From: a virus
Lineage: Duplodnaviria > Caudoviricetes
Direction: 5' to 3' (one strand)
Virus record (IMG/VR): IMGVR_UViG_2802429318_000001
Span: 12,530-76,529 of that record
DNA: 64,000 nucleotides
In this document: piece by piece, positions 5,885-62,358 of the stretch
How the letters are laid out: the number at the start of each line of letters is the position of its first letter
Numbering within the stretch: the first letter of the stretch is position 1
Notes under the pieces: generated by a model
The model's database searches: none
Seen by the model: only the letters and a program-made list of their open reading frames with translations
What the model was told of the DNA's origin: nothing
Position numbers and translations under genes: made by a program

Positions 5885-5960
5885 CAGGCGCCCAGGGCGA
5901 GAACCCCAACGCCCCATACGACCAACCACCAACCCGTCACACACCCAGGAGGACCACCCC

Positions 5961-6308: not shown

Positions 6309-6352
6309 CCTCAGACCAACGCCCTCACCGCGCCAACAAGGAGCAGCACCCC

Positions 6353-31813: not shown

Positions 31814-34396
31814 GTGTCGATCTCCGCCGTGGGCACGTTGCAAGCCAACCGCGGGACGGGCGTCACCACGCTGACCGTGTCGAGCCCCACCGTCGGCAAC
31901 GCCTGGCTGCTCGCGGTCCGCGTCGCCTCCAGCTCGATCACGGTGTCCTCCGTGTCCGGCGGCGGCCCGTCCACCTGGACCCGCATCGCCTCGGTGTCGC
32001 AGGCCGTCGTCAACGGCACCCTGGAGATCTGGCTCGGCACGATCGCCGCAACCACCCCGACGACGATCACGGTGACGTTCAGCGGGTCCGTCGCCGCCAT
32101 CAGTACCGAGCTGTGCGCCGAACAGTTCTCCAGCAGCCTCGCCAACACCGTGTGGGCAGCCGACGGCACCGGCGGCAACACCAGCGGCTCAGCCACAACG
32201 GCGATCACCTTCCCATCGCTGACCCCGAGCGCAGGCGCGCGCCTCTACTACGGGTACGCCTACGTCACGAACACCACCGTGGCGGGCTCGACTTCCGGTT
32301 TCACGTACACGGTCACCGCCGCAGGCAACGCCGTTCTCTGGAATCCCGGCGTGACCGCAGCGTCCGCCCCCACCTGCACGCAGACCCCGGCCGGCAACGT
32401 GGCCACGCTCGGCGTCCTCGTCCGAGCGAGCGGGGCCGTGAGCCTCGCCGGAGCGTCGACGGGCGGCAGCAGCATCGGCCGACAGGCCTGGCTCGCGCAA
32501 GCGGCGACCGGGACCGGCAACTCGCAGCTCGTCCGCACGGCAGCGGCACCACGGAGCGCTTCCGCAACGGCTGCAGCGAGCCTCTCGCGTACGGTCGGCC
32601 GGCCTCTGGCCGCAGCGGTCAGCACGGCGAGATCCCTCGCCGTGACGGCGGCCCGGGCGCTACTCCTGGTGGCAGCGGTTGTCGGCTCGGGCACCGTCCG
32701 GCGCGCAGTGGGCCAGAGCGCGGGCGCCGTGTCTCTCAGCGCGGCAACCGTGCGACGCGGCATCGGCCAGGCAGCCCCAGGTGCGGCGACGGGCGGCACC
32801 ACGGTGAGGCGCGGTCTCGCGACAACGGCGGCGGCGAACCGGACGGCCGCGGCGGTGCTCATCCGAGGCCCGCAGGTCGCACTGACGCAGAGCGTGCACG
32901 GGACAGGGCTGCTGGCACGGATGGCCGGCGTCCGGGTGACGGCTGCCGGACTCGGCGTCGGACAGGCCCGGAACGGGGTCGGCCGTACGCTGGCAACGTC
33001 GACTACCGGCGCCACTGCTCTGGCCCGTGGAACTGCTGCGGTGGCCGCTGTCGCTGCCACGGCTGCGGCGACCGTGCGGCGGGCGGCCGCTCGCGCCTAT
33101 GCCGGGGCGGCTGGAGCAACGGCGGTCAGCATCGGGCAGGCGGCGCTCGGCCGGACGTACGCCGCCATCGCGAGCTCGGCTCCGGCGCTGAGCGTCGGGG
33201 CAGCCCTCTCCCGCTCGTACGCCGCCACGGCGACTGCGGTCGGCGCGGTGACACGGTCCGTCGCCCGCAGCGTCACGGTGGCCGCGACGGCCACTGCCAC
33301 AGTCCTCGTCGGCTCCGTCCACCTCCTGATCCTGGCCGTGGCCAGCACGGCCGGGGCGGCGCTGATGCTCGGCCGGGCCGCGTTCCTCACGGCCCTCGCC
33401 ACAACCACCGGCGCCGGTGCCCTCCGACGGACCCTCGCTCGCCCCGTCACCACCACGACGTCGGCCACGGGCAACCTCACACGCTCGGCCGCGACCGGCC
33501 TGACCGCAGGCTCGACGAGCACCAGCTCCCTCCGACGTGGCCTCGCCCGAGCCCAAGCCGCCTCGGCCACCGGCACGGCCAGCGTGCTGGTTGGTGCAGC
33601 GCTGTCGCTGATCCTCGCGGCCGCAGCGACCGCCGCCCGTACGGTCACGATCGCCAGGGCCACGTTCCTTGCCCTTGCCACCAACGGCCTGGGCAGTGGC
33701 AGTCTCACCCGCGGGGCCCACGCCGGACTTGCTGGATCGAGTACGAGCACCAGTGGCGTCACTCGGCGTGCCGGCCTGGTCGTCTCGGCCACTGCGACGG
33801 TGTCCGGAGCACTCGGCCGGGCCCTCGCGCAGGCCATGAACACGGTCGCAGGCAGCTCGCGCGCCGTGGCCCGCAGCGTGGGTCGGCCGCTTGCGGCCGG
33901 AGCGGTCGCCGTCACCGGCATCGAGCTGATGCGGTCCACGCTCATCCTCATCCTGGAGACGTCCGCGACCGGCGCGGTGTCCATGCTCCGGCGCGCTGCC
34001 CTCACCCGCGCGACAGCCGCGAACTCGACGGCTGGCCTCACCCGGGCCGCCACGCTCACCGCCCGGGCAGACGTCCTCACCGCGAGCGTGCTGCGGCGCG
34101 CCACGGGCCGCACCGTGGCCACATCGGCGACCACGGCAACCTCGGCGAGCGTGGCCCGCGGCTATGCAGCGGTCCTGGCCGCTACCGCCGTCACCGCGGT
34201 GGAGACCGTCGTCCAGACCGTCCGCGCGCTCCGGGACCTCACCATCACGGTCACCGCCGGGCTCGCCCGCTGGTCAGTCCAAGACCTCCGGGCCCGTTGG
34301 ACCGCCGAACAGGCGGGCCCGCGCTGGTCGATCCGGGAGCCGGCCGCGCGCTGGCGGGCATGGCTGAGTGGCGGCCGCTGGCGAACGTGGTTCTAG
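31814..34396 (+). CDS. long repetitive Ala/Thr/Arg fibre-like protein
   Basis: About 200-aa beta-rich head, long roughly 22-aa periodic repeats, RW-repeat tail. Confidence 0.65.
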   Translation: MSISAVGTLQANRGTGVTTLTVSSPTVGNAWLLAVRVASSSITVSSVSGGGPSTWTRIASVSQAVVNGTLEIWLGTIAATTPTTITVTFSGSVAAISTELCAEQFSSSLANTVWAADGTGGNTSGSATTAITFPSLTPSAGARLYYGYAYVTNTTVAGSTSGFTYTVTAAGNAVLWNPGVTAASAPTCTQTPAGNVATLGVLVRASGAVSLAGASTGGSSIGRQAWLAQAATGTGNSQLVRTAAAPRSASATAAASLSRTVGRPLAAAVSTARSLAVTAARALLLVAAVVGSGTVRRAVGQSAGAVSLSAATVRRGIGQAAPGAATGGTTVRRGLATTAAANRTAAAVLIRGPQVALTQSVHGTGLLARMAGVRVTAAGLGVGQARNGVGRTLATSTTGATALARGTAAVAAVAATAAATVRRAAARAYAGAAGATAVSIGQAALGRTYAAIASSAPALSVGAALSRSYAATATAVGAVTRSVARSVTVAATATATVLVGSVHLLILAVASTAGAALMLGRAAFLTALATTTGAGALRRTLARPVTTTTSATGNLTRSAATGLTAGSTSTSSLRRGLARAQAASATGTASVLVGAALSLILAAAATAARTVTIARATFLALATNGLGSGSLTRGAHAGLAGSSTSTSGVTRRAGLVVSATATVSGALGRALAQAMNTVAGSSRAVARSVGRPLAAGAVAVTGIELMRSTLILILETSATGAVSMLRRAALTRATAANSTAGLTRAATLTARADVLTASVLRRATGRTVATSATTATSASVARGYAAVLAATAVTAVETVVQTVRALRDLTITVTAGLARWSVQDLRARWTAEQAGPRWSIREPAARWRAWLSGGRWRTWF

Positions 34397-34737: not shown

Positions 34738-35175
34738 GTGGACGCCCTCACCCAATCCCCAGCCCCCCAACTCGCCACCCCGCCAGCGGCCGCCGCACCT
34801 GAGGGCCCGGTGTGCACGGCCTGCGGGGACGCGGCGGTCGTGCAGTGGCAGCGCCGGCCGACCGACGCCGAGGTCGCCGAGACCGTCCGTGCGGAGCAGG
34901 AGCGCCGCGACCAGGTCGTCCTCCTCTCCGATCCGCAACTCCCGGAGCCTGTGTTCGGGCCGCTGCCGTCGGCGGACGGCATGACGCGCGCCGTGTACGG
35001 GTGCGCCGCGCATGCCGTCACTCTGGACCTCGCGGCACGCGTGCACGCCAGCACGTGCACGGCCCCGGCCGAAGGCGATCTCCCGGGGTGCGGCTGCAAG
35101 CCCGAACCCGCCCCGACCGCGCCCCTGGAAGAGGCGCCCCTGCTGCCGGACCACTGGGTGACGGGCGGCAACTGA
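34738..35175 (+). CDS. Cys-rich hypothetical protein
   Basis: CTACG...GCAAH...CGC. Confidence 0.65.
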   Translation: MDALTQSPAPQLATPPAAAAPEGPVCTACGDAAVVQWQRRPTDAEVAETVRAEQERRDQVVLLSDPQLPEPVFGPLPSADGMTRAVYGCAAHAVTLDLAARVHASTCTAPAEGDLPGCGCKPEPAPTAPLEEAPLLPDHWVTGGN

Positions 35176-35846
35176 TGCCGAAGCAGGGGCATGGACGTGA
35201 GCTGCCCGAAGGGTTCGAGGAGTTCCGGGCGGACGGCAACCGCCGCTGCTGGAGCCGCAGCAAGAAGAGCAACGGGGAGCAGTGCGGTGCCCCAGCCATG
35301 CTCGGCCAGAACATCTGCCACCACCACGGCGGGTCCGCGCCGCAGAGCATCAGAGCGGCCAAGGAGCGGCTGTCCGAAGAGAGGGCGCGGAAGCTCGTGG
35401 CAACCTACGGCCGGAAGATCGAGACCACCGCCACGGAGGCGCTCCTCGACGAGGTGCAGTGGACGGCCGGACACGTCGCCTGGCTGCGGGAACGCGTCCA
35501 GGAGATCGAAGAGGGCGCGGTCGCGGACGGGACGGACGGCGCGCATCCGTTGGTATGGGGCGTCACCCGCGAGAAGACCGGCGGCGAAGACCATGGGGTC
35601 ACCTCCGAGGCCTCCCCGAACGTCTGGTTGAAGCTGTACCAGCAGGAGCGCACGCACCTGGTGAAGGTGTGCGAGGCGGCTATCCGCGCGGGCATCGAGG
35701 AGCGGCGGGTCCGGCTGGCGGAGGAGCAGGGCGCCCTCGTGGCACAGGTGATCAGGCTGATCCTGGCCGACCTCGACCTGACGGCGGAGCAGCGGCAGCG
35801 AGTACCGGAGATCGTGCCGCGCCATCTGCGCGCGCTGGGATCCTGA
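35175..35846 (+). CDS. terS: terminase small subunit (HGG-type)
   Basis: C..RSKKSNGEQC...ICHHHGGSAPQ; lies upstream of terL. Confidence 0.75.
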   Translation: MPKQGHGRELPEGFEEFRADGNRRCWSRSKKSNGEQCGAPAMLGQNICHHHGGSAPQSIRAAKERLSEERARKLVATYGRKIETTATEALLDEVQWTAGHVAWLRERVQEIEEGAVADGTDGAHPLVWGVTREKTGGEDHGVTSEASPNVWLKLYQQERTHLVKVCEAAIRAGIEERRVRLAEEQGALVAQVIRLILADLDLTAEQRQRVPEIVPRHLRALGS

Positions 35847-35861: not shown

Positions 35862-37391
35862 ATGACCGCCACCATGGACTGGTCCGAGTTTGCGGCGAAG
35901 GCGTTCGAGGGCCGCGACGTGTTCGGGCTCCTTGGCTACGTGCCGACTCCGAAGCAGCGCGAATTCCATGCCGCGACCGAGTTCGACGTCCTGTACGGCG
36001 GCGCGGCCGGGGGCGGGAAGACGCGGGCGCTCCTCATGGACGCGATCCGGGACTGCGATCAGTACCCGGGACTCCGTGTCGGCGCGTTCCGGCGGACGTA
36101 CGGCGAGCTGAAAGAGTCGCTGATCGCCGAGCTGGCGCAGGTCGAGTTCGCGCAGGCGTTGGGGGCGCGCTGGAACGGTACGGAGTTCGAGCTGAAGTTC
36201 GCTAACGGCAGCTTGATCATGTTCCGGTACGCCGAGAGCGTTCAGGACGCCACCAGGCGCCAGGGCGGGCAGTACCAGAAGCTGCTGTTCGACGAGCGCA
36301 CCCTGACACCGCCCGACGTCGTCAGCTTCCTGGAGACCCGGCTGCGGTCCGGCCGCCGCGACATCCCCGTCCTCGGCATCCGCTCGGGCACGAACCCTGG
36401 CGGGGCCGGACACGGAGCGGTAAAAACCCGCTACATCAAGCCGACGAACTACGGCAAGAAGGTCATCACCGACGCCCGCAACCGCACCGTCCGCTTCATC
36501 CCCTCGAAGCTGTCGGACAACCCGCACGTCAACCCCGAGTACGCCGGCGACCTCCAGGCCCTCGACGGCAAGCTCCGCAGCGCCTTTCTGGACGGTGACT
36601 GGGACGTGTTCGCCGGCCAGATGTTCCCCGAGCTCAAGCGCGACCGGCACGTCGTCCAACCGATCACCCTGCCCGCCTCGTGGAAGCGGTACAACGGCGT
36701 CGACTGGGGCTTCAGCGCCCCATGGGCCGTGCTCTGGGCGGCAGTCGACGAAGACGGCCGCGTCTGGGTCTACCGCGAGATCTACCAGCGCGGTGTTGGC
36801 GAAGCTGATCAGGCCAAGCAGATCCTCGCCGCCGAGACGGCCGACGAGCACGTCGCTGTCCGGTTCGCCGACGACGCGATGTGGGCCACCCGCGGCGACG
36901 CGAAAGCAATCTCCGACGTCTACGCAGAGAACGGCGTCCACCTCACCCAGGCAGGGAAGGGCGACGGCAGCCGTGTGACGGGCTGGCAACGCGTCCGCTC
37001 CTACCTCAAAGAAGGCCCGGCGTGCCCGCACCACCGGGCGCAGGGCTGGACCACCTGCCCGATGATCCACCTCTTCAACACGGTCACCGAGCTCTACCGC
37101 GAGCTCACCGACCTGCCACATGCCACCAAGGGCAACCCGGAAGACGCCGACACGACGGCCGACGACCACGCCTCGGACGGCCTCCGCTACCTGCTGACGA
37201 ACCTCGGCGCGGGCCCGGAAATGGTGATCCTCGACGAGGCGCCGACCGAGCCGATCGCCGACGCCTTGCAGCCGCTGGGAATGACGATGGCCGTGCGCCC
37301 GGACTCCGGGGCTGCGCCGGATGACGCCTGGTGGGCTGACGATGACGACACGCCGCGTGCGGGGAGGACGGTGGAATCCCCGTGGGGCTGA
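35862..37391 (+). CDS. terL: terminase large subunit
   Basis: YGGAAGGGKT, LLFDE, TNPGG.GH, GVDWG, DDHASDGLRY. Confidence 0.95.
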   Translation: MTATMDWSEFAAKAFEGRDVFGLLGYVPTPKQREFHAATEFDVLYGGAAGGGKTRALLMDAIRDCDQYPGLRVGAFRRTYGELKESLIAELAQVEFAQALGARWNGTEFELKFANGSLIMFRYAESVQDATRRQGGQYQKLLFDERTLTPPDVVSFLETRLRSGRRDIPVLGIRSGTNPGGAGHGAVKTRYIKPTNYGKKVITDARNRTVRFIPSKLSDNPHVNPEYAGDLQALDGKLRSAFLDGDWDVFAGQMFPELKRDRHVVQPITLPASWKRYNGVDWGFSAPWAVLWAAVDEDGRVWVYREIYQRGVGEADQAKQILAAETADEHVAVRFADDAMWATRGDAKAISDVYAENGVHLTQAGKGDGSRVTGWQRVRSYLKEGPACPHHRAQGWTTCPMIHLFNTVTELYRELTDLPHATKGNPEDADTTADDHASDGLRYLLTNLGAGPEMVILDEAPTEPIADALQPLGMTMAVRPDSGAAPDDAWWADDDDTPRAGRTVESPWG

Positions 37392-38953
37392 AGAGTTGGT
37401 GGCAGGGCCTGCGCGCCGAACCGGAAGTGCTGGAGCGGGCGCCCGCGCAGGGCAAGCTGCCGGAGCGCACCGGCTACGAGTTCGGGATCGGCCCGGGCGG
37501 CCTGACCGAGAGCAACCAGGGCCTCGGCGCGGGCACGCAGACGGACCGCCGGTCGACGCTCGACCAGCTCTACCAGGCGTACTTGGCCTGCCCGTGGGCC
37601 TGGGCGTCCGTGAACGCGATCGCCCGCACGATCACAGCGGGCGGCCTGGTCACGGACTGGGACAACGACGACGGCGAGGGCGACCAGGAGACGCCGGACA
37701 AGCCGGCCGAGGTGAAGCTCCTCGAAGGCATGCTGGCGTACTGCAACCCGCGGGAGAACATCCGGCAGATCCTCCGCTCGGTGGTCGTCGACCTGCTGGT
37801 GTTCGGCGACGCGTACATCGAGGTCGTGTGGATCGGCTCCCAGCCGGTCGCGCTGTACTCGCTGGACTGCCCGAGCATGATGCCGATCGCCGACGAGCAC
37901 GGCAACGTCACCTCGTACGTGCAGGTGACGGAGATGGGGCAGCGCGCCACGTTCGAGCCGCGCGAGGTCATCCACATCTCGCTGGACTCGCCTCGCAGTT
38001 CGGTGTTCGGTGTGTCGCCGACGCAGGCCGCGTTGCTGCCGATCACGGGGTGGCTGTTCGCTGCGGCGACGACGAAGGAGATCTTCCGGAAGGGCGCTCC
38101 TCCACAGCTGTGGATCGACCACGCGTCGAGCACGTCGGCGGCGGAGATCAACCGGTGGAACGCCCAGTACCAGGCACGGAACGTCGGCCCGAGGAACATC
38201 GGCAACCCGATCAACACCAAGGGCGGCGCCAAGGTCGAAGAACTGGCGCAGTCCCGGACGATGGACTACCTCAAGTACCTGGAGCAGAAGCGGGACGAGA
38301 TCATCGCCTCGTACGGTGTGCCTCCGGCGAAGGTCGGGATCATCGAGTCCGGGAACCTGGGTGGCGGTACGGGGGAGTCCCAGGACCGCACCTTCATGAT
38401 CAACACTTGTCAGCCCATCGCCGAACTCGTCCTCGAAGCCCTCAACTTCGCCCTGGCCAAGGCCGGATTCGGAGTGACCGGCTGGCGCCTGAAATTCCGC
38501 GACATCGACATGCGGGACAGCAAGACCGTCGAGGAAATCCGCGACCAGCGACTCCGCAACGGAGCCTGGACCCTCAACCGGTACAGGGCCGACATCGGCG
38601 AACCCGCCGTGGACGGCGGCGACCAGCCGATCCTCATTGACCACGAGAACCTCGTCAGCTGGGCCGACATGGACGCGGCGTCCAAGGCGTCGATCGCCTC
38701 CAAGCTGAAGGGCACCGCACTGGATCCGGCCGAGCCGGTCCAGGGCGAGCCGATCGGCGTGGAGAAGCCGGAACCGGCCCCCACGCCGCCGCAGTTGGTG
38801 CCGTTCGCGGGCGGCGCGCCGCCGGAATCGGACGACGACAGCGCCCCGGACGACGACCTGCCCGAGGAATCGGCCCGGGACGTGTACCGGCGTCGGCTCC
38901 GCGAGGCGCTGGCCGCGCTCCCTGGAGGGATCGATGAGCGAGCAGCCGCCTGA
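37382..38953 (+). CDS. portal protein
   Basis: DLLVFGDAYIEV, EVIHI, FGVSP, IIASYGVPP, WTLNRYR. Confidence 0.93.
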   Translation: MGLKSWWQGLRAEPEVLERAPAQGKLPERTGYEFGIGPGGLTESNQGLGAGTQTDRRSTLDQLYQAYLACPWAWASVNAIARTITAGGLVTDWDNDDGEGDQETPDKPAEVKLLEGMLAYCNPRENIRQILRSVVVDLLVFGDAYIEVVWIGSQPVALYSLDCPSMMPIADEHGNVTSYVQVTEMGQRATFEPREVIHISLDSPRSSVFGVSPTQAALLPITGWLFAAATTKEIFRKGAPPQLWIDHASSTSAAEINRWNAQYQARNVGPRNIGNPINTKGGAKVEELAQSRTMDYLKYLEQKRDEIIASYGVPPAKVGIIESGNLGGGTGESQDRTFMINTCQPIAELVLEALNFALAKAGFGVTGWRLKFRDIDMRDSKTVEEIRDQRLRNGAWTLNRYRADIGEPAVDGGDQPILIDHENLVSWADMDAASKASIASKLKGTALDPAEPVQGEPIGVEKPEPAPTPPQLVPFAGGAPPESDDDSAPDDDLPEESARDVYRRRLREALAALPGGIDERAAA

Positions 38954-39043: not shown

Positions 39044-39244
39044 ATGATCGACATCCAGGATCTGAAGAAGATCGAGATCCAGCCGGGCGACGCCTTCGTC
39101 GTCCAGTCCGACCAGGGCATTACTGCGGCCGAGGCGCAGCGCCTGAAGGACGCCTGGGCCAAGTTCTTCGGTGACGTCCCGCTCTTCATCCTCTCCCAAG
39201 CCAAGCTGGTCCAGCTCAGACCCGTCAGCACCACGGACGGCTGA
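39044..39244 (+). CDS. hypothetical protein
   Basis: IEIQPGDAFVV; located in head operon. Confidence 0.6.
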   Translation: MIDIQDLKKIEIQPGDAFVVQSDQGITAAEAQRLKDAWAKFFGDVPLFILSQAKLVQLRPVSTTDG

Positions 39245-39260
39245 CCCGCAGGGGGTGACC

Positions 39261-40709
39261 GTGGCGTCTCCGGACTACTCCGACGGCTGCATGATCGCCC
39301 TCTACCCCCCACCCGAACTCGCGCAGGCGCTCGCAGTCGACGACGGTCTCCCGGCAGAGGAAATGCACGTCACTGTCGCCTACCTCGGTGACGCCGCCGA
39401 CGTCGACGGTGACGCGCTCCGCGAGATCGTCGCAGCTCTCGCCGAGCGCCAGCCGTTCACAGCCCAGCTCGCCGGACACGCCCGGTTCACGGGCGGCGAC
39501 AAGGACGTCATCGTCGCCCTCGTCGACTCGCCTGACCTCGAAGACCTCCGCCGAGACACTCTCGACGCCCTCCAGGAACGCGGAATCCAACCACCGCGCG
39601 ACCACGGGTTCACAGCCCACCTCACGATCACCTATCTCGACCCCGACGACGAGGCCCCCCTCGACCGACTCGGCGCGCAGCAGGTCGAGTTCACGGCCAT
39701 TGCCGCCGTCCACGGCACCGACCGCACAGACCACACGCTGGAGCATCCGATCACCGGGCCCGCGCGCGAAGCCTTCGCCGCCGGCTGGGCACTGTCCGGC
39801 GGCCCGATGACCGAGCGGGTGAAGGCAGCCAGCACCGCCGCCGTCCAGACCGCGATCGAGCGCGCGAACGACCCGCACATCCTCGAAGTCACCATCGACC
39901 TCGGCCGCCTGGAAGGCATGTGGGCCAAGCTGTTCGGCCGCCGCGAGGAGAAACAGGCCGAGCACACCAGGCTCGTCACCGACGCCTGGCGGGACCTCAT
40001 CAACCGCGACGCCGTGACGGTCATGGTCGACCGGTTCCGCAGCCAGGCCAACCTCACCGAAGGCGTCCGGGACTTCCTCAGCGACGCGCTCGCCGCCGCC
40101 CGCAGCATGCTTGGCGCGCTCGCCGACCTCACCGGCTGGACCAAGGTGCGCCAGACGATCCGCGACGCCATCGCCGCCGGGAACGCCGAGGGCATGGTCA
40201 ACGCGGTGGCCATCGCCGCCGAACGTGCAGCCCTCCTCGGCCTGGACTGGAACCTCGCCTTCAGCGACGCCTACGAATCCCTCGCCCGCCTCGACGAACT
40301 GTGGGGCAACGCGGACGGCTGGCTCGGCCGGACAGTCGACCGCGCGGCCGACGACCTCGGCAAGGCCCTCTCCCAGGCGGCAGAGGACGGAGCCTCCCGC
40401 GACGAGATGATCGACGCCGCCATGGACATCCTCGCCTCCGAGGACGTCGACGCGGTCGCCTTCGTCGTCGACTGGGCGATGACCGCCGCCGCCGACGACG
40501 GCGCGCTGCGCCTCTACCGCTCCGAGGGCGTTCAGCAGATCGACGTCATCACCGCAGGCGACGGCCGCGTCTGCGAGAGCTGCATCGACTACGAGGCCGG
40601 AAGCCCCTGGCCGACGCTCGACGTGCCCCGACTGCCCACCCATCCCGTCTGCCGCTGCTGCTACGCCGCGGCCATGTCCCTGTCGAATTTCGCGAGCTGG
40701 TTCGCATGA
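39261..40709 (+). CDS. 2H phosphoesterase fused to MuF/gp7 head morphogenesis domain
   Basis: MHVTVAYLG and AHLTITY (2x HxT); C-terminal TAGDGRVCESC...PTHPVCRC. Confidence 0.85.
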   Translation: MASPDYSDGCMIALYPPPELAQALAVDDGLPAEEMHVTVAYLGDAADVDGDALREIVAALAERQPFTAQLAGHARFTGGDKDVIVALVDSPDLEDLRRDTLDALQERGIQPPRDHGFTAHLTITYLDPDDEAPLDRLGAQQVEFTAIAAVHGTDRTDHTLEHPITGPAREAFAAGWALSGGPMTERVKAASTAAVQTAIERANDPHILEVTIDLGRLEGMWAKLFGRREEKQAEHTRLVTDAWRDLINRDAVTVMVDRFRSQANLTEGVRDFLSDALAAARSMLGALADLTGWTKVRQTIRDAIAAGNAEGMVNAVAIAAERAALLGLDWNLAFSDAYESLARLDELWGNADGWLGRTVDRAADDLGKALSQAAEDGASRDEMIDAAMDILASEDVDAVAFVVDWAMTAAADDGALRLYRSEGVQQIDVITAGDGRVCESCIDYEAGSPWPTLDVPRLPTHPVCRCCYAAAMSLSNFASWFA

Positions 40710-40719
40710 GGAGGCTGCC

Positions 40720-41121
40720 GTGAGCGGCGCGCACTACCCTTCCGCCCGCACGCTGTGGACCCTCGCGGGCAACGGCGTGAGTACCACGCTGAGCGGCGCC
40801 GGATCGGCGAACAGCGGCTCCATCAACATCACCGACGTCGCGGACCTGTGGCTCGCCGTCTACGTCGCAGGGACCTCGACGGGCACCACCCCCACCCTCG
40901 ACGTTCAGATCGACGTCCAGGACCCAGCCGGGAACTGGTTCGCCCAGGTCGCCAAGACCGTGCAGCTCACGAGCAGCCCGAACTTCACCAACACGTCCTG
41001 CGGCCTGCACATCGGCGGCCTCGGCTCGATGGTGCTGCCGAACATCTGCCGCGTCGTGTGGACGGTCGGCGGCACCAACCCGGTCTTCCCGCAGGCCGCG
41101 ATCTCGCTGATCGGGAGGTGA
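40720..41121 (+). CDS. beta-rich virion protein
   Basis: GTTPTLDVQID...RVVWTVGGTNP.F. Confidence 0.65.
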   Translation: MSGAHYPSARTLWTLAGNGVSTTLSGAGSANSGSINITDVADLWLAVYVAGTSTGTTPTLDVQIDVQDPAGNWFAQVAKTVQLTSSPNFTNTSCGLHIGGLGSMVLPNICRVVWTVGGTNPVFPQAAISLIGR

Positions 41122-41123
41122 CC

Positions 41124-42872
41124 ATGGCTGCTCGCATCGGCACGATCTCCGGCATCGCCCTCGTCCCCGGCGTCTCCCGCAACGGGCGCCTCTACTCCGC
41201 CGAGAGCATCGGCCGGGCCTGCACCCGGGCCACTGCGCGCATCGACGAGAGCGGCGCACCGCTGACGATGCTCACCCACCACGCGGCCGACGACGACTCC
41301 ACCCAGATCGTCGGCCGGCTGACCTCGCTCGTGCAGCTCGACGACGGGCGCGCCCGCTACACGGCCGACCTCGCCGACACCGAAGAGGCGCGCACGATCG
41401 CCAACCTCGTGGACGACACCGACGGGCCGCCCTACCTCGACGGTGTTTCGATCCGCGGCGCCTGGGTCGGCAAGGTACGGCGGCAACCGGGCCCGGACGG
41501 GGTGCAGGTGGAGACGGCCGACGACCTGGAGATCGACGGTCTCGACTTCACTCGGAAGCCCGGCGTGATCGGCGCGCGGGTCGAAGGCTTCACCCGCGAG
41601 GGCACCAGCGCCCCGGCGGAGAACGCGCCCGAGGGACGGGTGCTCATCACCGAGTCAGTACAGGAGGCGCTGGTGCAGACCACCATCGACGAGGCCGACG
41701 CTGGGACGGGCGACGCGCCGCCGTCCGGCGACGGGCCGTACGCCGATCCCGGCTACCAGTCGGACAAGAAGAAGCGGTACGACCTCTCGACCAAGGCAAA
41801 GGCCAAGGCCGCTTGGTCGTACATCGGCCAGGCGGACAACGCCCGCCTCTACTCGTCCGCCCAGCTCAAGCGCATCAAGCAGCGCATCACCAAGGCACTC
41901 AAGGCCTTCGGCGTCACGGTCGCCACGCAGGAGGGCTGGCTGATCGAGCCCGCCTCCGCGGTGAGCGAGACGCTCGCCGAGTGCTGGGGCATGGACTCCA
42001 AGGACGCCGGCAACCTGTACGTCAGCCTCACCAACGGGCCGACGACGGTCACCGTCTCCTCGTACTCGCTCGACCCCCACGATCTGGACGCCGTCGGCCG
42101 TGCAGCCATGGCGGGCGCCGTGCAGGCCATCATCGCCATCGACCCTGACCTCGACGCCGACGTGGACGTCCCCGGGCAGCCCGGCGACGACACCCCGGCG
42201 GCGAGCGCGGCCGGCGCGGTGTGCCCGTGCGGCTGCGGATGCGCGGTCCCGGACACCCCCGGCGGCTGCCCGTGCAAGTGCGCCGCCGGTGACTGCCAGC
42301 ACTGCATGGGCGAAGACGACGGCGACGCGACGGAGTCCGCCCCCACACAGACCTCGGCGCCGGAGACACCGGCCGCCGACAACCCCACCCGAGAAGAAGA
42401 GGAGGGGCCCGCCATGGCGGAGTCCACCACCCAGGCGGCCGAGACCGCTGCCGTCCCCGCCGCTGGTGGGGTCCACCTGTCCGACGCGCAGTTCGCGCAG
42501 CTCCTCGACCGCATCGCACCGCCTCCGGTGGCGCCCGCGGCTGCGACAGAGTCCGCGCCGGCCGAGCAGGTCGCCGAGACTCAGGTCGCGGCCACCGAGG
42601 TCACTGAGACCGAGGACCAGCGCATCGCTCGCCTGGTCGCAGAGGGCGTCGCCGCAGCGCTGCCTAAGGCGATCCAGGAGCACGTCGCCACCACCGGCGG
42701 CCCGGCCCGCAAGGGCCTCGTCCCGCAGGTCTCCGAGACCGCCGGGGGCGCGGCCGACGCGCAGACCCTGCCCGAGGGCGCGCCCGACAAGCCGCTCCAC
42801 GAGTACACGCCGGAGGAGTGGAGCAAGCACATCGCCCCCGTGACCACCGGCGCGATCTTCCAGGGCCGCTGA
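41124..42872 (+). CDS. prohead protease/scaffold with DUF6582-like insert
   Basis: PGVSRNGRLYS, LTHH, GVSIRG, GLDFTRKPG; YADPGYQ.D.KKRY...AAWSYI; acidic C-terminus. Confidence 0.8.
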   Translation: MAARIGTISGIALVPGVSRNGRLYSAESIGRACTRATARIDESGAPLTMLTHHAADDDSTQIVGRLTSLVQLDDGRARYTADLADTEEARTIANLVDDTDGPPYLDGVSIRGAWVGKVRRQPGPDGVQVETADDLEIDGLDFTRKPGVIGARVEGFTREGTSAPAENAPEGRVLITESVQEALVQTTIDEADAGTGDAPPSGDGPYADPGYQSDKKKRYDLSTKAKAKAAWSYIGQADNARLYSSAQLKRIKQRITKALKAFGVTVATQEGWLIEPASAVSETLAECWGMDSKDAGNLYVSLTNGPTTVTVSSYSLDPHDLDAVGRAAMAGAVQAIIAIDPDLDADVDVPGQPGDDTPAASAAGAVCPCGCGCAVPDTPGGCPCKCAAGDCQHCMGEDDGDATESAPTQTSAPETPAADNPTREEEEGPAMAESTTQAAETAAVPAAGGVHLSDAQFAQLLDRIAPPPVAPAAATESAPAEQVAETQVAATEVTETEDQRIARLVAEGVAAALPKAIQEHVATTGGPARKGLVPQVSETAGGAADAQTLPEGAPDKPLHEYTPEEWSKHIAPVTTGAIFQGR

Positions 42873-43019
42873 CCTCCGACGCCCCAGGCGTCCCCTGAAC
42901 CACCCTGACCGCCAGCAGTCTGCTGGTGCCGACACGGCAGTGATGGTCGCCCAGCCCCGCCGCACCCCCTTCGTGCGCGGGGCTTCGCCATGTCCCCACC
43001 AGCCCAAAGAGGCATCAGC

Positions 43020-44390
43020 ATGAGCACAAACGAACTCCGCGAGGCGCTGACCGCCTCCGGCGCATCCCCGCTTGTCCCCACGATCGTCGACCCGATGCTG
43101 CTGGAGTACCAGCGGCGCTACTCCCCGCTGGTCCGGTCGATCCCGACCACCAAGTGGGACTCGACGGTCTACTACTTCAACCAGCGGACCGCCCGCGCGG
43201 CCGGCGGGTTCGTCACGGACGGCGGCGCCCGCCCGGTCTCCAACTCCACGTACGTGCAGAACTCGTACACCATCCGCAACATGCAGGCCGTGGGCGCCGT
43301 CACCGGCTACGCCCAGGCCGTCACCAAGGGCCTCATCGGCGACCTGAAGCAGCAGGAAGTCGAAGGCGCCATCCAGGGCCTGTACTGGGACATCGAGACC
43401 GCCATCCTCTGGGGCAACCAGGGATCCACCTCGCTCGGCGCCTACCCGCAGTTCGACGGCCTCGACACCCTCGCGTCCACGTTCTCCGGCAACAGCCAGA
43501 ACGCGATCGACATCAACGCCGCGATGTCGCTGGGCACCCTGGACCGCCTCATCGACATGGTCGAGCAGCAGTCCGCGATGGGCGTCTACGACTCCCAGTG
43601 GATGCTCGTCATGAGCTCCACCGCAGCCTCCAAGGTGTCCCAGCTGCTTCAGGCTCAGCAGCGCTTCCAGGGACAGATCCAGGTCGCGGCCGGCCTGAAC
43701 GTGCCGTCCTACCGGGACATCCCGATCATCAAGACGTCGTTCCTGTCCGCCCGGTCCTACGGCATGGGCACCGTCACCACGGGAACCGCCACCACCGGCG
43801 GCACCCTCGCCGCGGCCACGTACTACTACCAGATCGTCCCGGTCATCGCCCGCCAGGGCGAGATCCTCCCCTCCACCGAGGTCTCCCAGGCCACCACCGG
43901 CAGCACCAGCACGGTCACGCTGTCGTTCTCGACGCCGACCGGCCTCGACGGCTCCCAGCCCAACCTCTACAAGGTCTACCGCAGCACCAGCACGGGTGCG
44001 GAGACCCTCCTCGGCTACGTCGACGCCTGCGTCGGCCTCGCCGCCGACGGCGTCACCCCGGTGCTCACCACGAGCATCGTCGACGACGGCACCAAGCTCA
44101 CCCCGAAGAACGGCTCCACCGTCCCCGCCCAGGGTCCGGCCGCCTACGTCGGTACCAACTCGTCGGCGAAGCCGTCCGCCACGGGCCAGGAGTCCATCTA
44201 CCTGATGGCCCGCGACAAGAACTTCGTCACCCGCCCCTACGTGCGCGAGCTGTCCCCGCTGGACGTCTACCCGACCACGTCGGGCCCCGACCAGCTGCCG
44301 TTCGCGATCGCCTCGGACACCTGCCTCGCCGTCCGGGCCCCGAAGTTCCTGGGCCGCGCGGCCCGCGTCACCACCACCCTGTCCAGCTGA
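43020..44390 (+). CDS. major capsid protein with FN3-like insertion
   Basis: Follows protease; DIETAILWGN...QFDGL; insert TLAAATYYY...YKVYRST. Confidence 0.85.
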   Translation: MSTNELREALTASGASPLVPTIVDPMLLEYQRRYSPLVRSIPTTKWDSTVYYFNQRTARAAGGFVTDGGARPVSNSTYVQNSYTIRNMQAVGAVTGYAQAVTKGLIGDLKQQEVEGAIQGLYWDIETAILWGNQGSTSLGAYPQFDGLDTLASTFSGNSQNAIDINAAMSLGTLDRLIDMVEQQSAMGVYDSQWMLVMSSTAASKVSQLLQAQQRFQGQIQVAAGLNVPSYRDIPIIKTSFLSARSYGMGTVTTGTATTGGTLAAATYYYQIVPVIARQGEILPSTEVSQATTGSTSTVTLSFSTPTGLDGSQPNLYKVYRSTSTGAETLLGYVDACVGLAADGVTPVLTTSIVDDGTKLTPKNGSTVPAQGPAAYVGTNSSAKPSATGQESIYLMARDKNFVTRPYVRELSPLDVYPTTSGPDQLPFAIASDTCLAVRAPKFLGRAARVTTTLSS

Positions 44391-48710: not shown

Positions 48711-51700
48711 ATGGCAGAGGTCGCCGACCTGTGGGTCACCCTGCGCGCCGAGACCGCACCCTTCACCCGCGGCATGCGCCGGGCCTCGGAGGAAGGCGAA
48801 TCCTTCACAAGCCGCATGGGCGGCGCCTCGGCGATGCTCAAGAAGCTCGGCGCCGCCACCACCCTGGTCGGCGTCGGCTTCGTCGCCTACGGCGTGAAGG
48901 CCGCCGGCGACTTCCAGCAGAAAATGAACCTGCTGGTCACCGCCTGCGGCGAGTCGACGAAGAACCTCAAGAAGGTCTCCGACGGCGTCCTGTCCCTCGC
49001 CCGGGAGACGGGCACGTCGACCGACGAACTGTCCGACGGCATGTATCAGGTCGAGAAGGCCGGCTACCGAGCCGGGGACGGCCTGAAGGTCTTGAAGGCC
49101 GCGTCGCAAGGTGCACGCGAGGAGGGCGCGAGCCTCAAGGACGTCACCAACGCCATGACGAGCGTCATGGCGAGCTATCACCTCAAGGCGAGCGACAGCA
49201 CGAGGGTGATGAATGCCCTCAAGACGGCCGCCGGTGAGGGCAAGATGACCATGGAGGAGTTCTCGGGCAGCCTGTCCACGGTCATCCCGATCGCCTCCGC
49301 CAACAAGATCTCGTTCGGTGAGGTCGGCGGCGCGATCGCCACCCTGACTCAGCACGGCACCTCCGCGCGCGAGGCGACGCAGGAACTCTCCTCCACGATC
49401 CGCCAGTTGGCGGCGCCGAACGCAGTCGCCGTGCAGGAGATGCAGCGCCTCGGCCTGTCCTCCACGGACGTGTCCACGAAGCTGGGCAAGCGCGGCCTCA
49501 CGGGGACGCTGGACCTGCTGTCCCAGACGGTGCTCAGCAAGATGGGCAAGTCCGGCACGCTCCTGCTCTCCACCTTCAACCAGACCAAGCAGGCGTCGGC
49601 CGACCTCAAGACCATGCTCGGCTCGATGCCGAAGTCCGTTCAGGGCATGGCCACGAGCCTGTCCAAGGGCGCCATGTCCGTCGGCGACTACAAGAAGGCG
49701 ATCAAGAGCCTCCCGGCCGACCAGAACGCGATGGGCGCCCAGTTCCTCGCCCTCTACCAGCGCTCGCACGGCTTCAACGACGCACTCAAGAGGGGCGGCC
49801 CGGCAGCCCAGACGTACACCGAGGCCATCAAAAAGATGACGGGTGGCGCCATCGGTCTCAACACGACGCTGCAGCTCACAGGCGAGTCCTCCGCCGGGTT
49901 CAAGGACCGCGTGGACAAGGTCTCCGAGTCCTTCAACCACGCCTCGAAGGACGTTGAGGGCTGGAAGATCACCCAGCAGTCCTTCAACGTCCAGATGGGC
50001 CGCCTCAAGGAAGCCGTCACCACGGCCGCCATCACCGTCGGCACCAAGCTGATCCCGGTCATCCTCAAGGTCGTCACCTTCTTCGAGAAGCACAAGGCGG
50101 CCGCAATCGCGCTCGCCGCGGTCATCGGCGGAGTGCTGACGGCAGCCGTGATCAGCTTCGCGACCGGAGCGGTGATCGGCGCGGTCAAAGGCATCGGCGA
50201 CCTCGGCAAGGGCCTCATGGCCGCATCGAAGGCCGTGAAGGCCTTCGCTCTGTCCGAGAAGGTCGCTGCCGCAGCCTCGAAGATCTTCGCTGCCGGTCAG
50301 GCACTGGTGAACGCCGTCATGGACGCGAACCCGATCGTCTTGGTCGTGATCGCGCTCGTCGCTCTCACTGCTGGACTGATCTACGCCTACAACCACTGCG
50401 CACGCTTCCGGCAGATCGTGCAGTCGGCGTTCGCCGGGGTGAGGACCGCCGCTGTCGCGGTTTGGCACGCGCTGCAGGCAGTGTGGACCGGCATCGTCGG
50501 CGGAGTCACCTCGCTGTGGCACGGCATCGTCGGCGTCTGGCAGCGCATCGCGGCAATCACCAGCGTCGTGTGGGGCGCGATCGCAGGGTTCTTCAAGAAG
50601 TGGTGGCCATTGCTCTTGGTCATCTTCGCCTTGCCGATCGCCATCCTGGTCGCCATCTGGAACCACTGGCACACCCAGATCACGAGCGCCTGCCAGACCG
50701 CCTGGAATGCCATCCTCGGCTTCCTCAAGGGCTGCTGGGACGTGATCAAGGGCGCCGCATCCGTCGTCTGGGCCGTCATCGCCACGGTGATCATCGAGCC
50801 GATGATGGGCGTCTGGCACATGCTCCAGTCGGTCTGGCACACCATCTCCGGCTGGCTCAGCTCCGCCTGGGGCGCCATCCGAAGCGCCGCCGCATCCGTC
50901 TGGGGCCGGATCTCGTCGGCCATGAGCGGACCGGTGAAGTCGGCCTGGCGCACCATCTCCTCGACGATGGGCCAGGTCAAGGACGTCATCGGCAACAAGC
51001 TCAACCAGGCCTGGAGCGCAGCGAAGAACTGGGGCAGCAAGTTCCTGTCGATCGGCAAGAGCATCGTCATGGGCATGGTCCACGGCGTAGCGAACGCCGC
51101 CGGCGCGCTGTTCGGCGCGCTGAAGCATCTGGCCAGTAGCGCGCTCGACAAAGCCAAGTCGTTCCTCGGCATCAACTCGCCGTCCAAGCTGTTCGCCGAC
51201 CACGTGGGCAGCTCCATCCCCGAGGGCATGGCCAAGGGCGTCACGGACCATGCCCACCTCGCGCACGCGGCCATCCGCGGCACCGCGAACGGGATGGTCT
51301 CCGAGGCCCAGAAGACCCTCGGCATCGCCAGCCCCTCGAAGGTCTTCCGCAACATCGGGATCTACCTCAACGAGGGCCTGATCGAGGGTCTGACCGGGAG
51401 CACGGCCAAGGTCAAGGCAGCGACGAAGCGGATCGAGACGCTGCTCATCCAGACCTTCAACAAGGTCTCCGACCTGCGCGGCAACAAGAAGACCCGCCAC
51501 TGGGCGATGACGCACGAGTCGACGCTCAAGCACCTCGAGAAGTATGCGAAGAAGGAGGACACGCTCCTGCGCCGCCTGGCGACGAGGAGAGACCAGGTCG
51601 CCGTCAAGCTGAAGGCCGCGCAGAAGGCGCTCACCGCAGTCCAGAAGCAGTGGAACGACGAGGTCAAGAGCGTCTCGCAGGGGGTCATGCAGGGCTTCTC

Positions 51701-52445
51701 CATCGTGACGGAGGCGCCGCAGGAGGGGTTCGCCCTGTCCGCGCAGGACGTCGTCAACAAGATGCGCGACCAGATGTCCAAGGCCGTGAACTTCGCGGAC
51801 CAGCTCCGCGCCCTGCAGAAGAAGGGCCTGAGCAGCGACCTGGTCGCGCAGATCGCGGCGGCTGGCGTCGACCAGGGCGGGGCCACGGCGGCCGCACTGG
51901 CCGGGGCGTCGAAGGGGCAGATCGACCAGATCAACGCGCTCCAGAAGACGACGAAGGGTGCCGCTGACAGCGCGGGCAAGGCTGTTGCGGACTCGATGTA
52001 CGGGGCCGGGCTCCGGTCGGCTCAGGGCCTGGTGAAGGGCTTGCAGTCGCAGGAGAAGGCGATCGAGAAGCAGATGATGAAGATCGCCAAATCCATGCAG
52101 CGTGCCATCAAGCACGCTCTCGGGATCAAGAGCCCCTCGACGGTGTTCGCGGCCATCGGCCAGTGGATCCCCCGCGGACTCGCGGCCGGCGTCAAGGACC
52201 ACACCCATCACGCCACCAACGCCGTGCACAAGCTGGCGAACTCGGTGGCGAGCGCAGGGGCGGGCGCGGGGCGCGGACTGGCGCTGGCGGGAGGAGGCGG
52301 GGGCGGCCAGGTGGTGCACCAGCACTTCACGTTCCACGTCGAGGGCAACATCCGCACGATCGACTCGCTGGCCAAGGACATGGAGGCGGCGTTCCTGCGC
52401 CGCGGCGCCCGTAACCCGCTCACCTACACCCAGTACAGGCGCTGA
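48711..52445 (+). CDS. tape measure protein
   Basis: 1244 aa helical protein, TP901-like core, Trp repeats, GI.SPS motifs. Confidence 0.95.
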   Translation: MAEVADLWVTLRAETAPFTRGMRRASEEGESFTSRMGGASAMLKKLGAATTLVGVGFVAYGVKAAGDFQQKMNLLVTACGESTKNLKKVSDGVLSLARETGTSTDELSDGMYQVEKAGYRAGDGLKVLKAASQGAREEGASLKDVTNAMTSVMASYHLKASDSTRVMNALKTAAGEGKMTMEEFSGSLSTVIPIASANKISFGEVGGAIATLTQHGTSAREATQELSSTIRQLAAPNAVAVQEMQRLGLSSTDVSTKLGKRGLTGTLDLLSQTVLSKMGKSGTLLLSTFNQTKQASADLKTMLGSMPKSVQGMATSLSKGAMSVGDYKKAIKSLPADQNAMGAQFLALYQRSHGFNDALKRGGPAAQTYTEAIKKMTGGAIGLNTTLQLTGESSAGFKDRVDKVSESFNHASKDVEGWKITQQSFNVQMGRLKEAVTTAAITVGTKLIPVILKVVTFFEKHKAAAIALAAVIGGVLTAAVISFATGAVIGAVKGIGDLGKGLMAASKAVKAFALSEKVAAAASKIFAAGQALVNAVMDANPIVLVVIALVALTAGLIYAYNHCARFRQIVQSAFAGVRTAAVAVWHALQAVWTGIVGGVTSLWHGIVGVWQRIAAITSVVWGAIAGFFKKWWPLLLVIFALPIAILVAIWNHWHTQITSACQTAWNAILGFLKGCWDVIKGAASVVWAVIATVIIEPMMGVWHMLQSVWHTISGWLSSAWGAIRSAAASVWGRISSAMSGPVKSAWRTISSTMGQVKDVIGNKLNQAWSAAKNWGSKFLSIGKSIVMGMVHGVANAAGALFGALKHLASSALDKAKSFLGINSPSKLFADHVGSSIPEGMAKGVTDHAHLAHAAIRGTANGMVSEAQKTLGIASPSKVFRNIGIYLNEGLIEGLTGSTAKVKAATKRIETLLIQTFNKVSDLRGNKKTRHWAMTHESTLKHLEKYAKKEDTLLRRLATRRDQVAVKLKAAQKALTAVQKQWNDEVKSVSQGVMQGFSIVTEAPQEGFALSAQDVVNKMRDQMSKAVNFADQLRALQKKGLSSDLVAQIAAAGVDQGGATAAALAGASKGQIDQINALQKTTKGAADSAGKAVADSMYGAGLRSAQGLVKGLQSQEKAIEKQMMKIAKSMQRAIKHALGIKSPSTVFAAIGQWIPRGLAAGVKDHTHHATNAVHKLANSVASAGAGAGRGLALAGGGGGGQVVHQHFTFHVEGNIRTIDSLAKDMEAAFLRRGARNPLTYTQYRR

Positions 52446-57829: not shown

Positions 57830-58687
57830 ATGACGACAGCGAATCCCGACTGGCGGCGCCTCGTCGACCACGTCCAGACCATCCCCGAGAAGATCTACGA
57901 GACCTGGAACACCCGCGACGGCTGGGACAACCACACCCCGTTCGGCGTCGAATACGGCTGGGACGGCGTCGCCTGGTGCATGGAATTCGACTGGTGCATG
58001 TTCCACGACGTCGGCCTCGACGCCATCGTGCCGAAGACGGCATCCGTCGCCGTCATGACGGACTACGCCAAGAAGCACGGCGCCTGGAGCGAATACCCCT
58101 CGATCGGCGCCCTGGTCAATTTCTCGCAGTCCGGGCACACCGAGATCTGCGTCGGCTTCGACAAGGACACCGTCTACACCAAGGGCGGCAACAGCCTCCA
58201 GGTCGGCGCCGAGGACCACGGCCAAGGCAACGGAGTCTGGAGCCACGCGACGCCCCGCCGCGCGGCGAAGGTGGTCGGATACTTCGCGCCCGCGTTCCCG
58301 GACGGTGTCTGTCCGCCCACCGCGGATCCTGCCGACCCGCGTGGCGGGAAGCCCGTCGAGTCCTGGCGCTGGGCGCCGCCTCCAGTCGTCGAGCCGCCCA
58401 AGAAGCCCGCGCCGGCCCCGGTCCTTCCGGCGTTCCCTGGCCGGGACAAGTTCGTCCTCGGTGCCCACAACGACCACGCGTTCCAGTTGCAGAAGTGGCT
58501 CGACAAGGGCGACTGGGGCCCGAAGTACCAGGTCGGGCCGTCTCGGACGATGACCGCCGTCGACCTGCAGAAGGTGGCGGCGCTCCAACGGCACTACCTG
58601 TCGGAGCTCGGCCCGGCCGACGGCAAGTGCGGCCCCCTCACCTGGCGTTACGCGTTCGAGGTCGCCCACGGCCTCCGCAAGAAGTAG
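57830..58687 (+). CDS. endolysin (CHAP-like plus peptidoglycan-binding domain)
   Basis: VAWCMEF, GHTEI, TKGGNS; ADGKCGPLTW. Confidence 0.85.
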   Translation: MTTANPDWRRLVDHVQTIPEKIYETWNTRDGWDNHTPFGVEYGWDGVAWCMEFDWCMFHDVGLDAIVPKTASVAVMTDYAKKHGAWSEYPSIGALVNFSQSGHTEICVGFDKDTVYTKGGNSLQVGAEDHGQGNGVWSHATPRRAAKVVGYFAPAFPDGVCPPTADPADPRGGKPVESWRWAPPPVVEPPKKPAPAPVLPAFPGRDKFVLGAHNDHAFQLQKWLDKGDWGPKYQVGPSRTMTAVDLQKVAALQRHYLSELGPADGKCGPLTWRYAFEVAHGLRKK

Positions 58688-60185: not shown

Positions 60186-60800
60186 ATGAGCTTCCCGGTT
60201 GATCTCACAGCAGCACTTACAGGCGCATCCGTAGCGCAGCTGCACAACTGGAGACGAACAGATCTCCTCGTACCAGAGGTACAGGACAATCCCGTCCGGT
60301 ACTCCTTCCGAGACGTCGTCGCACTCAGGACCTTCGTGTACCTGCGCAGCAAGCTGCCACTCCAGCGCATCCGCAAGGCCATGGACCAGCTGCGCAAGTG
60401 GGACCTGACCGAGCACCCCGCCGCCTACGTCCTGGTTACAGAAGGCGACTCCGTCTTCCTCGTGCAGGAAGAGCGCACCGTTGACCTCGTCCGCCACCCC
60501 GGCCAGGAAACGATCTTCAGCCTCGCCAACGTCTTTGCCCCCTTCGAGAACATGCAGGGCCGGAACGTCGCAGACTTCCGACGCCCCCGCCCCAACCTCG
60601 AGGTTAAGGAAAACCGACTCGGCGGCTGGCCAACCATCCAGGGAACGCGCGTGCCCTACGATGCCGTGGCCAAGCTGGTCGCAGGCGGCGTGGAACCGGC
60701 AGAGGTGAAGCGCTTCTACCCCAGCGTCGAGGTACCTGGCGCCGCTGATGCCGCCGACTTCCATCGGGAAGTCGTGCAGATCGGAGGCCGCGCTGCATGA
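60186..60800 (+). CDS. MerR-HTH plus DUF433 antitoxin (VapB45-like)
   Basis: YSFRDVVALR; RLGGWPTIQGTRVP. Confidence 0.85.
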   Translation: MSFPVDLTAALTGASVAQLHNWRRTDLLVPEVQDNPVRYSFRDVVALRTFVYLRSKLPLQRIRKAMDQLRKWDLTEHPAAYVLVTEGDSVFLVQEERTVDLVRHPGQETIFSLANVFAPFENMQGRNVADFRRPRPNLEVKENRLGGWPTIQGTRVPYDAVAKLVAGGVEPAEVKRFYPSVEVPGAADAADFHREVVQIGGRAA

Positions 60801-62345: not shown

Positions 62346-62358
62346 CGACCCTCCGTCG

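Follow-up and report, generated by a model that had tools for sequence, protein, structure and literature searches.

A 2H phosphoesterase domain at the N-terminus of a divergent MuF-type minor head protein, a candidate capsid cargo in Streptomyces-type prophages

The window analysed here is a 64,000-nucleotide stretch of DNA from a virus of the Caudoviricetes (positions 12,530 to 76,529 of IMG/VR record IMGVR_UViG_2802429318_000001) and represents a tailed prophage of a high-GC actinomycete, with ~70% GC. In its head module, one gene joins an N-terminal 2H phosphoesterase domain to a divergent MuF-type protein. We read the product as a MuF/SPP1-gp7-type minor head protein, in which the intact, LigT-like 2H domain would be an optional cargo loaded into the capsid; we see about equal chances of this reading being right or wrong. 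The gene and its parts are the following.

39261..40709, plus strand: 2H phosphoesterase–MuF fusion gene (translation of 482 amino acids plus stop)
39261..39752, plus strand: 2H phosphoesterase domain, residues 1-164 (PF13563, HxT pair, 2H fold)
39366..39374, plus strand: catalytic motif 1, H36-V-T38 (alignment of 26 sequences, regular expression on 101)
39618..39626, plus strand: catalytic motif 2, H120-L-T122 (same alignment and expression)
39753..40706, plus strand: putative MuF-type minor head protein core, residues 165-482 (2H-less relatives open here; fold matches; PF04233 in relatives)
40362..40667, plus strand: segment matching TIGR01641 (SPP1 gp7 domain), residues 368-469 (weak profile match)
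40572..40658, plus strand: CxxC...HPxCRC motif, residues C438, C441, H461, C464 and C466 (conservation in relatives)

The gene starts with a GTG at 39261, placed 5 nucleotides after an AGGGGG Shine-Dalgarno-like run (39250-39255). The longest open reading frame (ORF) at the locus opens at 39171 and overlaps the preceding 66-amino-acid ORF; we prefer the GTG because the N-termini of homologous proteins read MASPDYSDGC.... The translation, the AGGGGG run and these N-termini agree with the gene limits of the original prediction, which was made from the DNA letters alone. A separate MuF protein translated from an internal start at M183 was considered and rejected, as no Shine-Dalgarno-like run lies ahead of that ATG. 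Among cluster representatives, one protein of 482 amino acids is identical to the window protein and more than 100 relatives measure ~480-490 amino acids. The relatives are nearly all named Streptomyces.

The two HxT motifs that the original prediction had seen in the first ~170 amino acids are intact and conserved. In an alignment of 26 sequences, reaching down to relatives with 50% identity, H36, T38 and H120 never vary and position 122 is filled by threonine or serine. A regular expression applied to the 101 cluster representatives that bear the domain finds HxT at motif 1 in all except one, which has HVP, and Hx(T/S) at motif 2 in 94; two of the others have HLP or HCI at this site and five were missed by the expression. 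Residues 26-132 match PF13563 (2'-5' RNA ligase / 2H superfamily) with an E-value of 8.7e-14 and 52.3 bits against a cut-off of 27. Further Pfam matches are to LigT_PEase (PF02834; E 2.3e-6, 28.1 bits against a cut-off of 23.3) and to 2H-SAK (E 0.013). The AlphaFold2 model of residues 1-173 shows the standard 2H fold, with a mean predicted local distance difference test score (pLDDT) of 90.4. By its motifs, profile matches and bilobed fold, the N-terminal domain is an intact member of the 2H phosphoesterase superfamily.

We regard the C-terminal part as a divergent MuF protein, on weak direct profile matches and better indirect evidence from relatives and structural models. TIGR01641 is aligned over positions 3-106 of its 109 (E 0.0015 with the full protein, 6e-4 with its C-terminal part), and phrog_4728 ('head morphogenesis') is matched with E 7.7e-6. 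A profile search of 1.84 billion representative sequences yielded 6930 matches at E up to 0.001, the top 150 of which span E 5.5e-137 to 3.7e-45. We combined 82 MuF-core relatives from this top 150 with the C-terminal part of the window protein and scanned the resulting 83 sequences individually: 37 of them match PF04233 with E-values of 0.01 or less, the best being 9.1e-8. The AlphaFold2 model of residues 166-482 has a pLDDT of 91.3. A search of BFVD with this MuF-core model returned 53 entries at E up to 0.001, the best matches lying between E 3e-6 and 1e-3, and the named matches listed are mostly 'minor capsid protein', 'head morphogenesis' or fusions of MuF with effectors. Among solved structures, the MuF-core profile found only chance-level integrase matches (E 0.018 or worse), and the single-sequence search nothing under E 0.17. 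The MuF4 seed of Jamet et al., gp4 of mycobacteriophage Angel, was tried as a reference and gave no support (hhalign, 19 columns, E 0.038).

The Cys/His motif near the C-terminus, which had suggested a MuF protein in the first place, is conserved both in close and in more distant relatives. C438, C441, H461, C464, R465 and C466 are invariant in the 26 aligned sequences, and in the 83 more distant ones the positions equivalent to C441, H461, C464 and C466 never vary. When the protein is aligned by hhalign with gp17 of Arthrobacter phage Salgado, which matches PF04233, the 38-column Cys/His motif alone is aligned (E 1.2e-4). The CxxC...HPxCRC motif may bind a metal.

In nine of the relatives (P0122, P0129, P0136, P0137, P0140, P0168, P0169, P0212 and P0216) the MuF core is interrupted by an intein (Hint / Intein_splicing). 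Two insertion sites are used, one near the CxxC motif and one near the CRC motif; the inteins split the hidden Markov model (HMM) of the core at about position 278 of 322 in P0129 and P0136 and at about 303-305 in P0140. Inteins usually occupy essential conserved sites, and their location therefore argues for a functionally important Cys/His motif.

The 2H domain is an optional part of this protein. In a survey of 121 proteins, consisting of the window protein and 120 listed relatives, the domain is present in 102 and absent from 19. The short forms without it have ~300-336 amino acids, are up to 82% identical to the MuF core of the window protein and open exactly at the domain boundary ('HPI..AREAFAAGWA'); three of them begin at an internal methionine and could be mis-called. 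Ten syntenic genome loci reveal the same two states. Six have the order portal–2H–MuF, and in the other four the portal gene abuts the MuF gene and no 2H-coding DNA is found within 4 kb on either side.

On a quick maximum-likelihood tree of 119 MuF cores, built with a short search after the duplicate P0002 and the truncated P0103 had been dropped, presence and absence of the 2H domain require 17 changes. At least nine of these are forced by branches with a Shimodaira–Hasegawa-like approximate likelihood ratio (SH-aLRT) support of at least 95. The trait is no better clustered on the tree than shuffled labels are (mean of 18 changes). As judged from these sequences, the 2H domain is dispensable for head assembly and has been repeatedly gained or lost, a behaviour in keeping with an accessory function that helps under certain conditions and not with a structural element.

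The domain order was analysed in the best 150 of the 6930 representatives. As the search profile spanned 485 positions, effectively the full length of the protein, the matches were split again with local HMMs of the N- and C-terminal domains. This yields 98 proteins with MuF only, 43 with 2H followed by MuF, one with the reverse order and eight with a 2H domain and lacking this MuF core. The original prediction had stated that effector domains on MuF proteins are usually C-terminal; in this family the N-terminal position is the rule, found in 43 of the 44 representatives that have both domains. The protein with the reverse order (P0243, 516 amino acids) has its MuF core at 5-309 and its 2H domain at 356-507, so both orders can exist.

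According to Pfam, the same clade of 2H domains is joined to several other partners. P0217 (1288 amino acids) has the order portal–2H–MuF, with a canonical PF04233 match; P0239 and P0245 are portal–2H proteins; P0260 joins the prohead protease Peptidase_S78 to 2H, and P0244 joins 2H to a zeta toxin. P0143 continues from 2H and MuF into a kinase-like domain. P0141, a polyvalent protein of 3693 amino acids, opens with the same 2H–MuF pair and has the series 2H-MuF-SAP-HeH-ART-Rho_N-NUDIX. P0160 and P0192 combine MuF with ART. By domain assignment, the nearest relatives of the 2H domain are also parts of fusions, with portal, prohead protease, MuF or zeta toxin.

Stand-alone 2H genes are found just after the portal gene in Brevibacterium phage Cantare (gp9) and Gordonia phage Chidiebere (gp25); the latter adjoins a gene for a VIP2-like ADP-ribosyltransferase. 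In Arthrobacter phage Salgado, gp18 combines 2H with Peptidase_S78_2 (E 1.9e-14). The annotation of Salgado appears shifted in this region (4051-5643, 5830-6951): gp17, labelled 'head maturation protease', matches Phage_Mu_F (E 1.7e-11), and gp18, labelled 'RNA ligase', is likely the protease, given its Peptidase_S78_2 domain.

A tblastn search of 50,697 phage records matched 30, of which 26 align by the 2H part only and four by the C-terminal motif only; no isolated phage record in this set covers at least 80% of the fusion query. Among 150 other genomes of the lysogen's genus, 11 match the fusion by the 2H part only, with 36-44% identity. Open frames of 720-1299 amino acids contain ten of these matches, and the remaining one lies in a frame of 294; further 2H fusions, for example portal–2H, probably account for the large frames.

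The genes around the fusion are listed below.

35130-35846: phrog_3678 protein
35862..37391, plus strand: terminase large subunit (phrog_979, E 5.6e-36; PF03237, E 6.8e-7)
37382..38953, plus strand: portal protein gene (PF04860, E 3e-33; phrog_12, E 3.9e-53)
39044..39244, plus strand: 66-amino-acid ORF between portal and fusion gene (GC fraction 0.90 at third and 0.36 at second codon positions; AGAGGG ahead of the ATG)
40720..41121, plus strand: 133-amino-acid ORF downstream of the fusion gene (GGAGG ahead of the GTG; no family match)
41124..42872, plus strand: putative prohead protease/scaffold of 582 amino acids (ATG after GGGAGG; phrog_207, E 0.001; DUF6582, E 1.5e-10)
42990..44390, plus strand: major capsid protein (phrog_752, E 6.1e-46; PF17236, E 8.4e-8)
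48711-52445: tape measure, preceded by adaptor and tail tube
57830-58687: endolysin

The order terminase, portal, fusion, scaffold/protease, capsid, tail and lysin constitutes, as read from these matches, a complete head module. The domain and neighbour evidence bears out the predicted architecture, with 2H N-terminal to MuF and the gene between the portal and other head genes. The original prediction had placed it between portal and protease. The 'head maturation protease' label of the 582-amino-acid protein is a weak one, taken from its single phrog_207 match, with DUF6582 as the Pfam family.

The 66-amino-acid ORF has good coding statistics, matches no family and has no tblastn counterpart in the ten related loci. 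The 133-amino-acid ORF has a homologue in seven of these loci, four of the six with 2H and three of the four that lack it. We rejected this ORF as an immunity protein for the 2H cargo, because its presence does not track the domain.

Farther from the fusion, the early region encodes WhiB, a DnaB-like helicase, DUF5131, a DNA methylase, Fic and others. Just upstream of the packaging genes lies an ORF of 860 amino acids (31814-34396, plus strand), whose last ~650 residues are repetitive and rich in Ala, Thr, Arg and Ser; long ORFs overlap it in other frames and it has no PHROG match, which leaves it a candidate gene only. Other cargo-like genes in or beside the prophage encode a Fic/DOC protein (15761-16939, plus strand; E 1.6e-13), a PIN_10 domain protein (60797-61216, plus strand) and, on the minus strand, an HTH_31+DUF5753 regulator beside a DUF6879 protein (61494-63111).

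The interpretation of the fusion as capsid-loaded cargo fits the dispensability of the cassette and the fusion of its nearest relatives to portal, prohead protease or MuF. In SPP1, the portal targets a few copies of gp7 to the procapsid interior, and MuF fusions have been proposed to deliver cargo by this route (PMC6316719; Jamet et al. 2017, PMC5576092). By analogy, the MuF core would bind the portal during procapsid assembly, leaving the capsid with a few copies of the fusion in its interior. At genome entry into the next host the enzyme would then already exist as protein, or it would be released there. The 2H domain would cleave a substrate that forms or bears a 2',3'-cyclic phosphate, by the metal-independent HxT/HxT mechanism. 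Candidate substrates are immune signals made of cyclic or 2'-5'-linked oligonucleotides, or RNA ends left by host ribonucleases, and with either class the activity would be a conditionally useful counter-defence. In its fullest form, this proposal has a virion-borne 2H enzyme enter with the DNA and destroy signals of CBASS, the antiphage signalling system based on cyclic oligonucleotides, or of type III CRISPR-like (clustered regularly interspaced short palindromic repeats) systems, or heal cut RNA, before phage expression; we advance this stronger version only tentatively and judge it unlikely.

If it were true, this would be the first demonstrated virion-delivered anti-signalling enzyme, a premade-protein counter-defence of a type predicted since 2017 and never demonstrated. 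Phages whose enzyme travels in the capsid could disarm nucleotide immunity or repair RNA with no gene-expression lag, and the repeated loss and gain of the cassette in Streptomyces prophages would mirror how such defences are distributed among hosts. This prophage family is a convenient test bed, as its head modules, otherwise syntenic, occur naturally both with the cassette and lacking it.

Several observations weigh against the cargo interpretation. The C-terminal part of the window protein does not match PF04233 even at E up to 10, and its TIGR01641 match, at 20.2 bits, is under the cut-off of 39.65; membership of the MuF family therefore rests on transitive and fold evidence, and the Foldseek template modelling scores (TM-scores) between the core and MuF models are modest, at 0.3-0.5. 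The signs of a substrate are split, in that the predicted fold favours LigT and the 2',3'-cyclic phosphodiesterases (CPDases), whereas weak sequence signals appear to lean slightly to Acb1. The lysogen's own genome, 100% complete, has no SMODS match, and therefore the lysogen itself hints at no target. Experiments on any 2H–MuF protein were not found in the literature searched, which left subscription journals largely outside. In 2006, Vinga and colleagues reportedly did not observe SPP1 gp7 being ejected along with the DNA in vitro; if this is general, MuF cargo may stay in the capsid. Furthermore, adjacent genes can fuse with no functional meaning.

One of the two main alternatives is an RNA-directed enzyme for which immune nucleotides are not the substrate: a LigT-type 2',3'-cyclic phosphodiesterase or a Usb1-like ribonuclease that heals or trims RNA ends produced by host anticodon or HEPN-type nucleases, or attacks host RNA. 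We regard this as possible, if on the unlikely side. The original prediction had named Acb1 and LigT as the structures for comparison, and here the model of the 2H domain favours a LigT/CPDase-like fold. Behind structures of that type in score come Usb1 (14.6), the 2'-5' phosphodiesterase of rotavirus VP3 (14.1) and AKAP18 (13.8), followed by the Acb1-type structures 9q2g (12.3) and 7t26 (11.8) and the penguinpox cGAMP phosphodiesterase (10.2). This ranking is partly an effect of domain size, since 158 residues are aligned with 5h7e and 129 with Acb1. By fold and Pfam score, the domain looks like a generic, LigT-sized 2H enzyme of the LigT/CPDase type. Nevertheless, TIGR02258, the LigT/ThpR equivalog, is matched at 43.3 bits (E 3.4e-11), under its cut-off of 65.7, and P0245 and P0260, near relatives in other architectures, pass the Pfam cut-off for Acb1 with 31.1 bits each. 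A scan of 60 window ORFs finds no family of the RNA ligase, polynucleotide kinase(-phosphatase) or RtcB kind, which speaks against an RNA-repair role.

The other main alternative, a rather unlikely one, is that the 2H domain is a late cytoplasmic enzyme that is not delivered at all. It would work in the producing cell, at the time when head proteins can trigger signalling defences; its gene would have sat between portal and MuF and become fused by loss of a stop codon, and copies locked in capsids would be irrelevant. The stand-alone genes of Cantare and Chidiebere hold this same slot after the portal gene, and the domain fuses to whichever neighbour adjoins it, be it portal, MuF or protease. 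In addition, T4 Acb1 (57B) is made as a free protein from a gene that lies among late or structural ones, beside ipI, and the reported failure of SPP1 gp7 to leave the capsid with the DNA would fit. On the other hand, a tie to a low-copy structural protein would limit the pool of free enzyme, and this 2H clade has fused independently to three capsid-interior proteins and occurs in the 3693-amino-acid ART/NUDIX polyvalent protein, a pattern that resembles selection for co-packaging more than accident.

We consider it very unlikely that the domain is a true orthologue of Acb1, that is, an anti-CBASS nuclease specific for 3'3'-cyclic GMP-AMP (3'3'-cGAMP), cAAA and cAAG and tethered to MuF. The match to the Acb1 profile PF23474 is weak (E 0.0023, 18.1 bits) and lies under the 27-bit cut-off, and a precomputed match to this profile exists for a few family members. 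When the family profile is compared by hhalign with T4 Acb1, 111 columns that include both HxT motifs are aligned (E 0.0026); the comparison with E. coli ThpR reaches 38 columns only (E 0.022). CD-NTases (SMODS) are present in 17 of the 150 sampled other genomes of the genus. With SMODS in the genus and not in the lysogen, a CBASS target for the 2H domain is plausible but not indicated. Although it scores under the Acb1 threshold, the domain could still have Acb1-like chemistry.

Finally, a non-catalytic structural or assembly module, for instance a nucleic-acid-binding or scaffold-like appendage of MuF, would agree with a domain that the head module can dispense with and with the DNA binding known for MuF proteins, but the almost universal retention of the catalytic histidines and threonines would be unexpected for a purely structural role and makes this hardly credible.

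The reading of the fusion as capsid-loaded cargo can be set beside several known systems. Acb1 (T4 gp57B and Erwinia phage FBB1) likewise has a 2H fold and an HxT/HxT tetrad and is phage-encoded near structural genes. Acb1 is described as a free protein of ~150 amino acids with a C-terminal lid over the cyclic nucleotide, which cleaves the three nucleotides named above (Hobbs et al. 2022, PMC9117128). The 2H domain of the fusion has weak sequence similarity to Acb1 and differs from it in being larger, in its LigT-like predicted fold, in its score under the Pfam cut-off for Acb1 and in being covalently joined to a head protein; after the last strand, the chain runs on into MuF. The T4 gene 57B, annotated 'RNA ligase', adjoins ipI, the gene of a packaged and injected internal head protein (phage T4 3592-4411), which is an adjacency only.

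LigT/ThpR and the 2',3'-cyclic phosphodiesterases (E. coli LigT, 5ldm; T. thermophilus TT0787, 1iuh; D. radiodurans CPDase, 5h7e) share only 17-21% identity with the domain. They are stand-alone cellular enzymes, whereas the 2H domain described here is tied to MuF and is under the TIGR02258 cut-off. The actinophage 2H genes annotated as 'RNA ligase' (Salgado gp18, Chidiebere gp25 and Cantare gp9) have 28-35% identity to it and directly follow portal or MuF within the head module; none of them is fused to the MuF core seen in the window protein.

Like SPP1 gp7 and Mu gpF, the fusion is encoded after the portal, carries a Cys/His motif in its C-terminal part and has a helical core, and its relatives match PF04233. 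In contrast to them, the window protein is too divergent for a direct match and carries an N-terminal enzyme. In the MuF polymorphic toxins of temperate phages (Jamet et al. 2017, PMC5576092), MuF likewise serves in prophages as the carrier of an enzymatic domain that varies. There MuF is N-terminal, the toxin C-terminal, and an immunity gene follows downstream. The fusion does not belong with them, as its cargo is N-terminal and not an obvious toxin and its downstream ORF does not track the cargo. It does have the features of polyvalent, head-packaged effectors, namely an enzyme domain on a MuF or portal anchor in a late-gene context.

The closest precedents are the 2H fusions described by Iyer and colleagues. 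Iyer et al. 2017 (J Bacteriol, PMC5512222) report 2H domains fused to MuF or portal and propose them as ribonucleases or as degraders of the nucleotides that nucleotide-activated defences produce. Iyer et al. 2022 (Viruses, PMC9503650) take such fusions to suggest packaging in the head and injection, countering SMODS, cyclic-mononucleotide and CRISPR signalling. The 2H–MuF architecture and a counter-defence role have thus already been predicted in print, and as a discovery the prophage adds little beyond a further member. It agrees with those fusions in domains, head-module context and the logic of packaging and injection, and in having no linked RNA ligase. Where those studies offer predictions only, the present analysis follows one specific family, with 2H N-terminal to MuF in Streptomyces-type prophages, and adds family-level evidence for repeated loss or gain of the 2H cassette.

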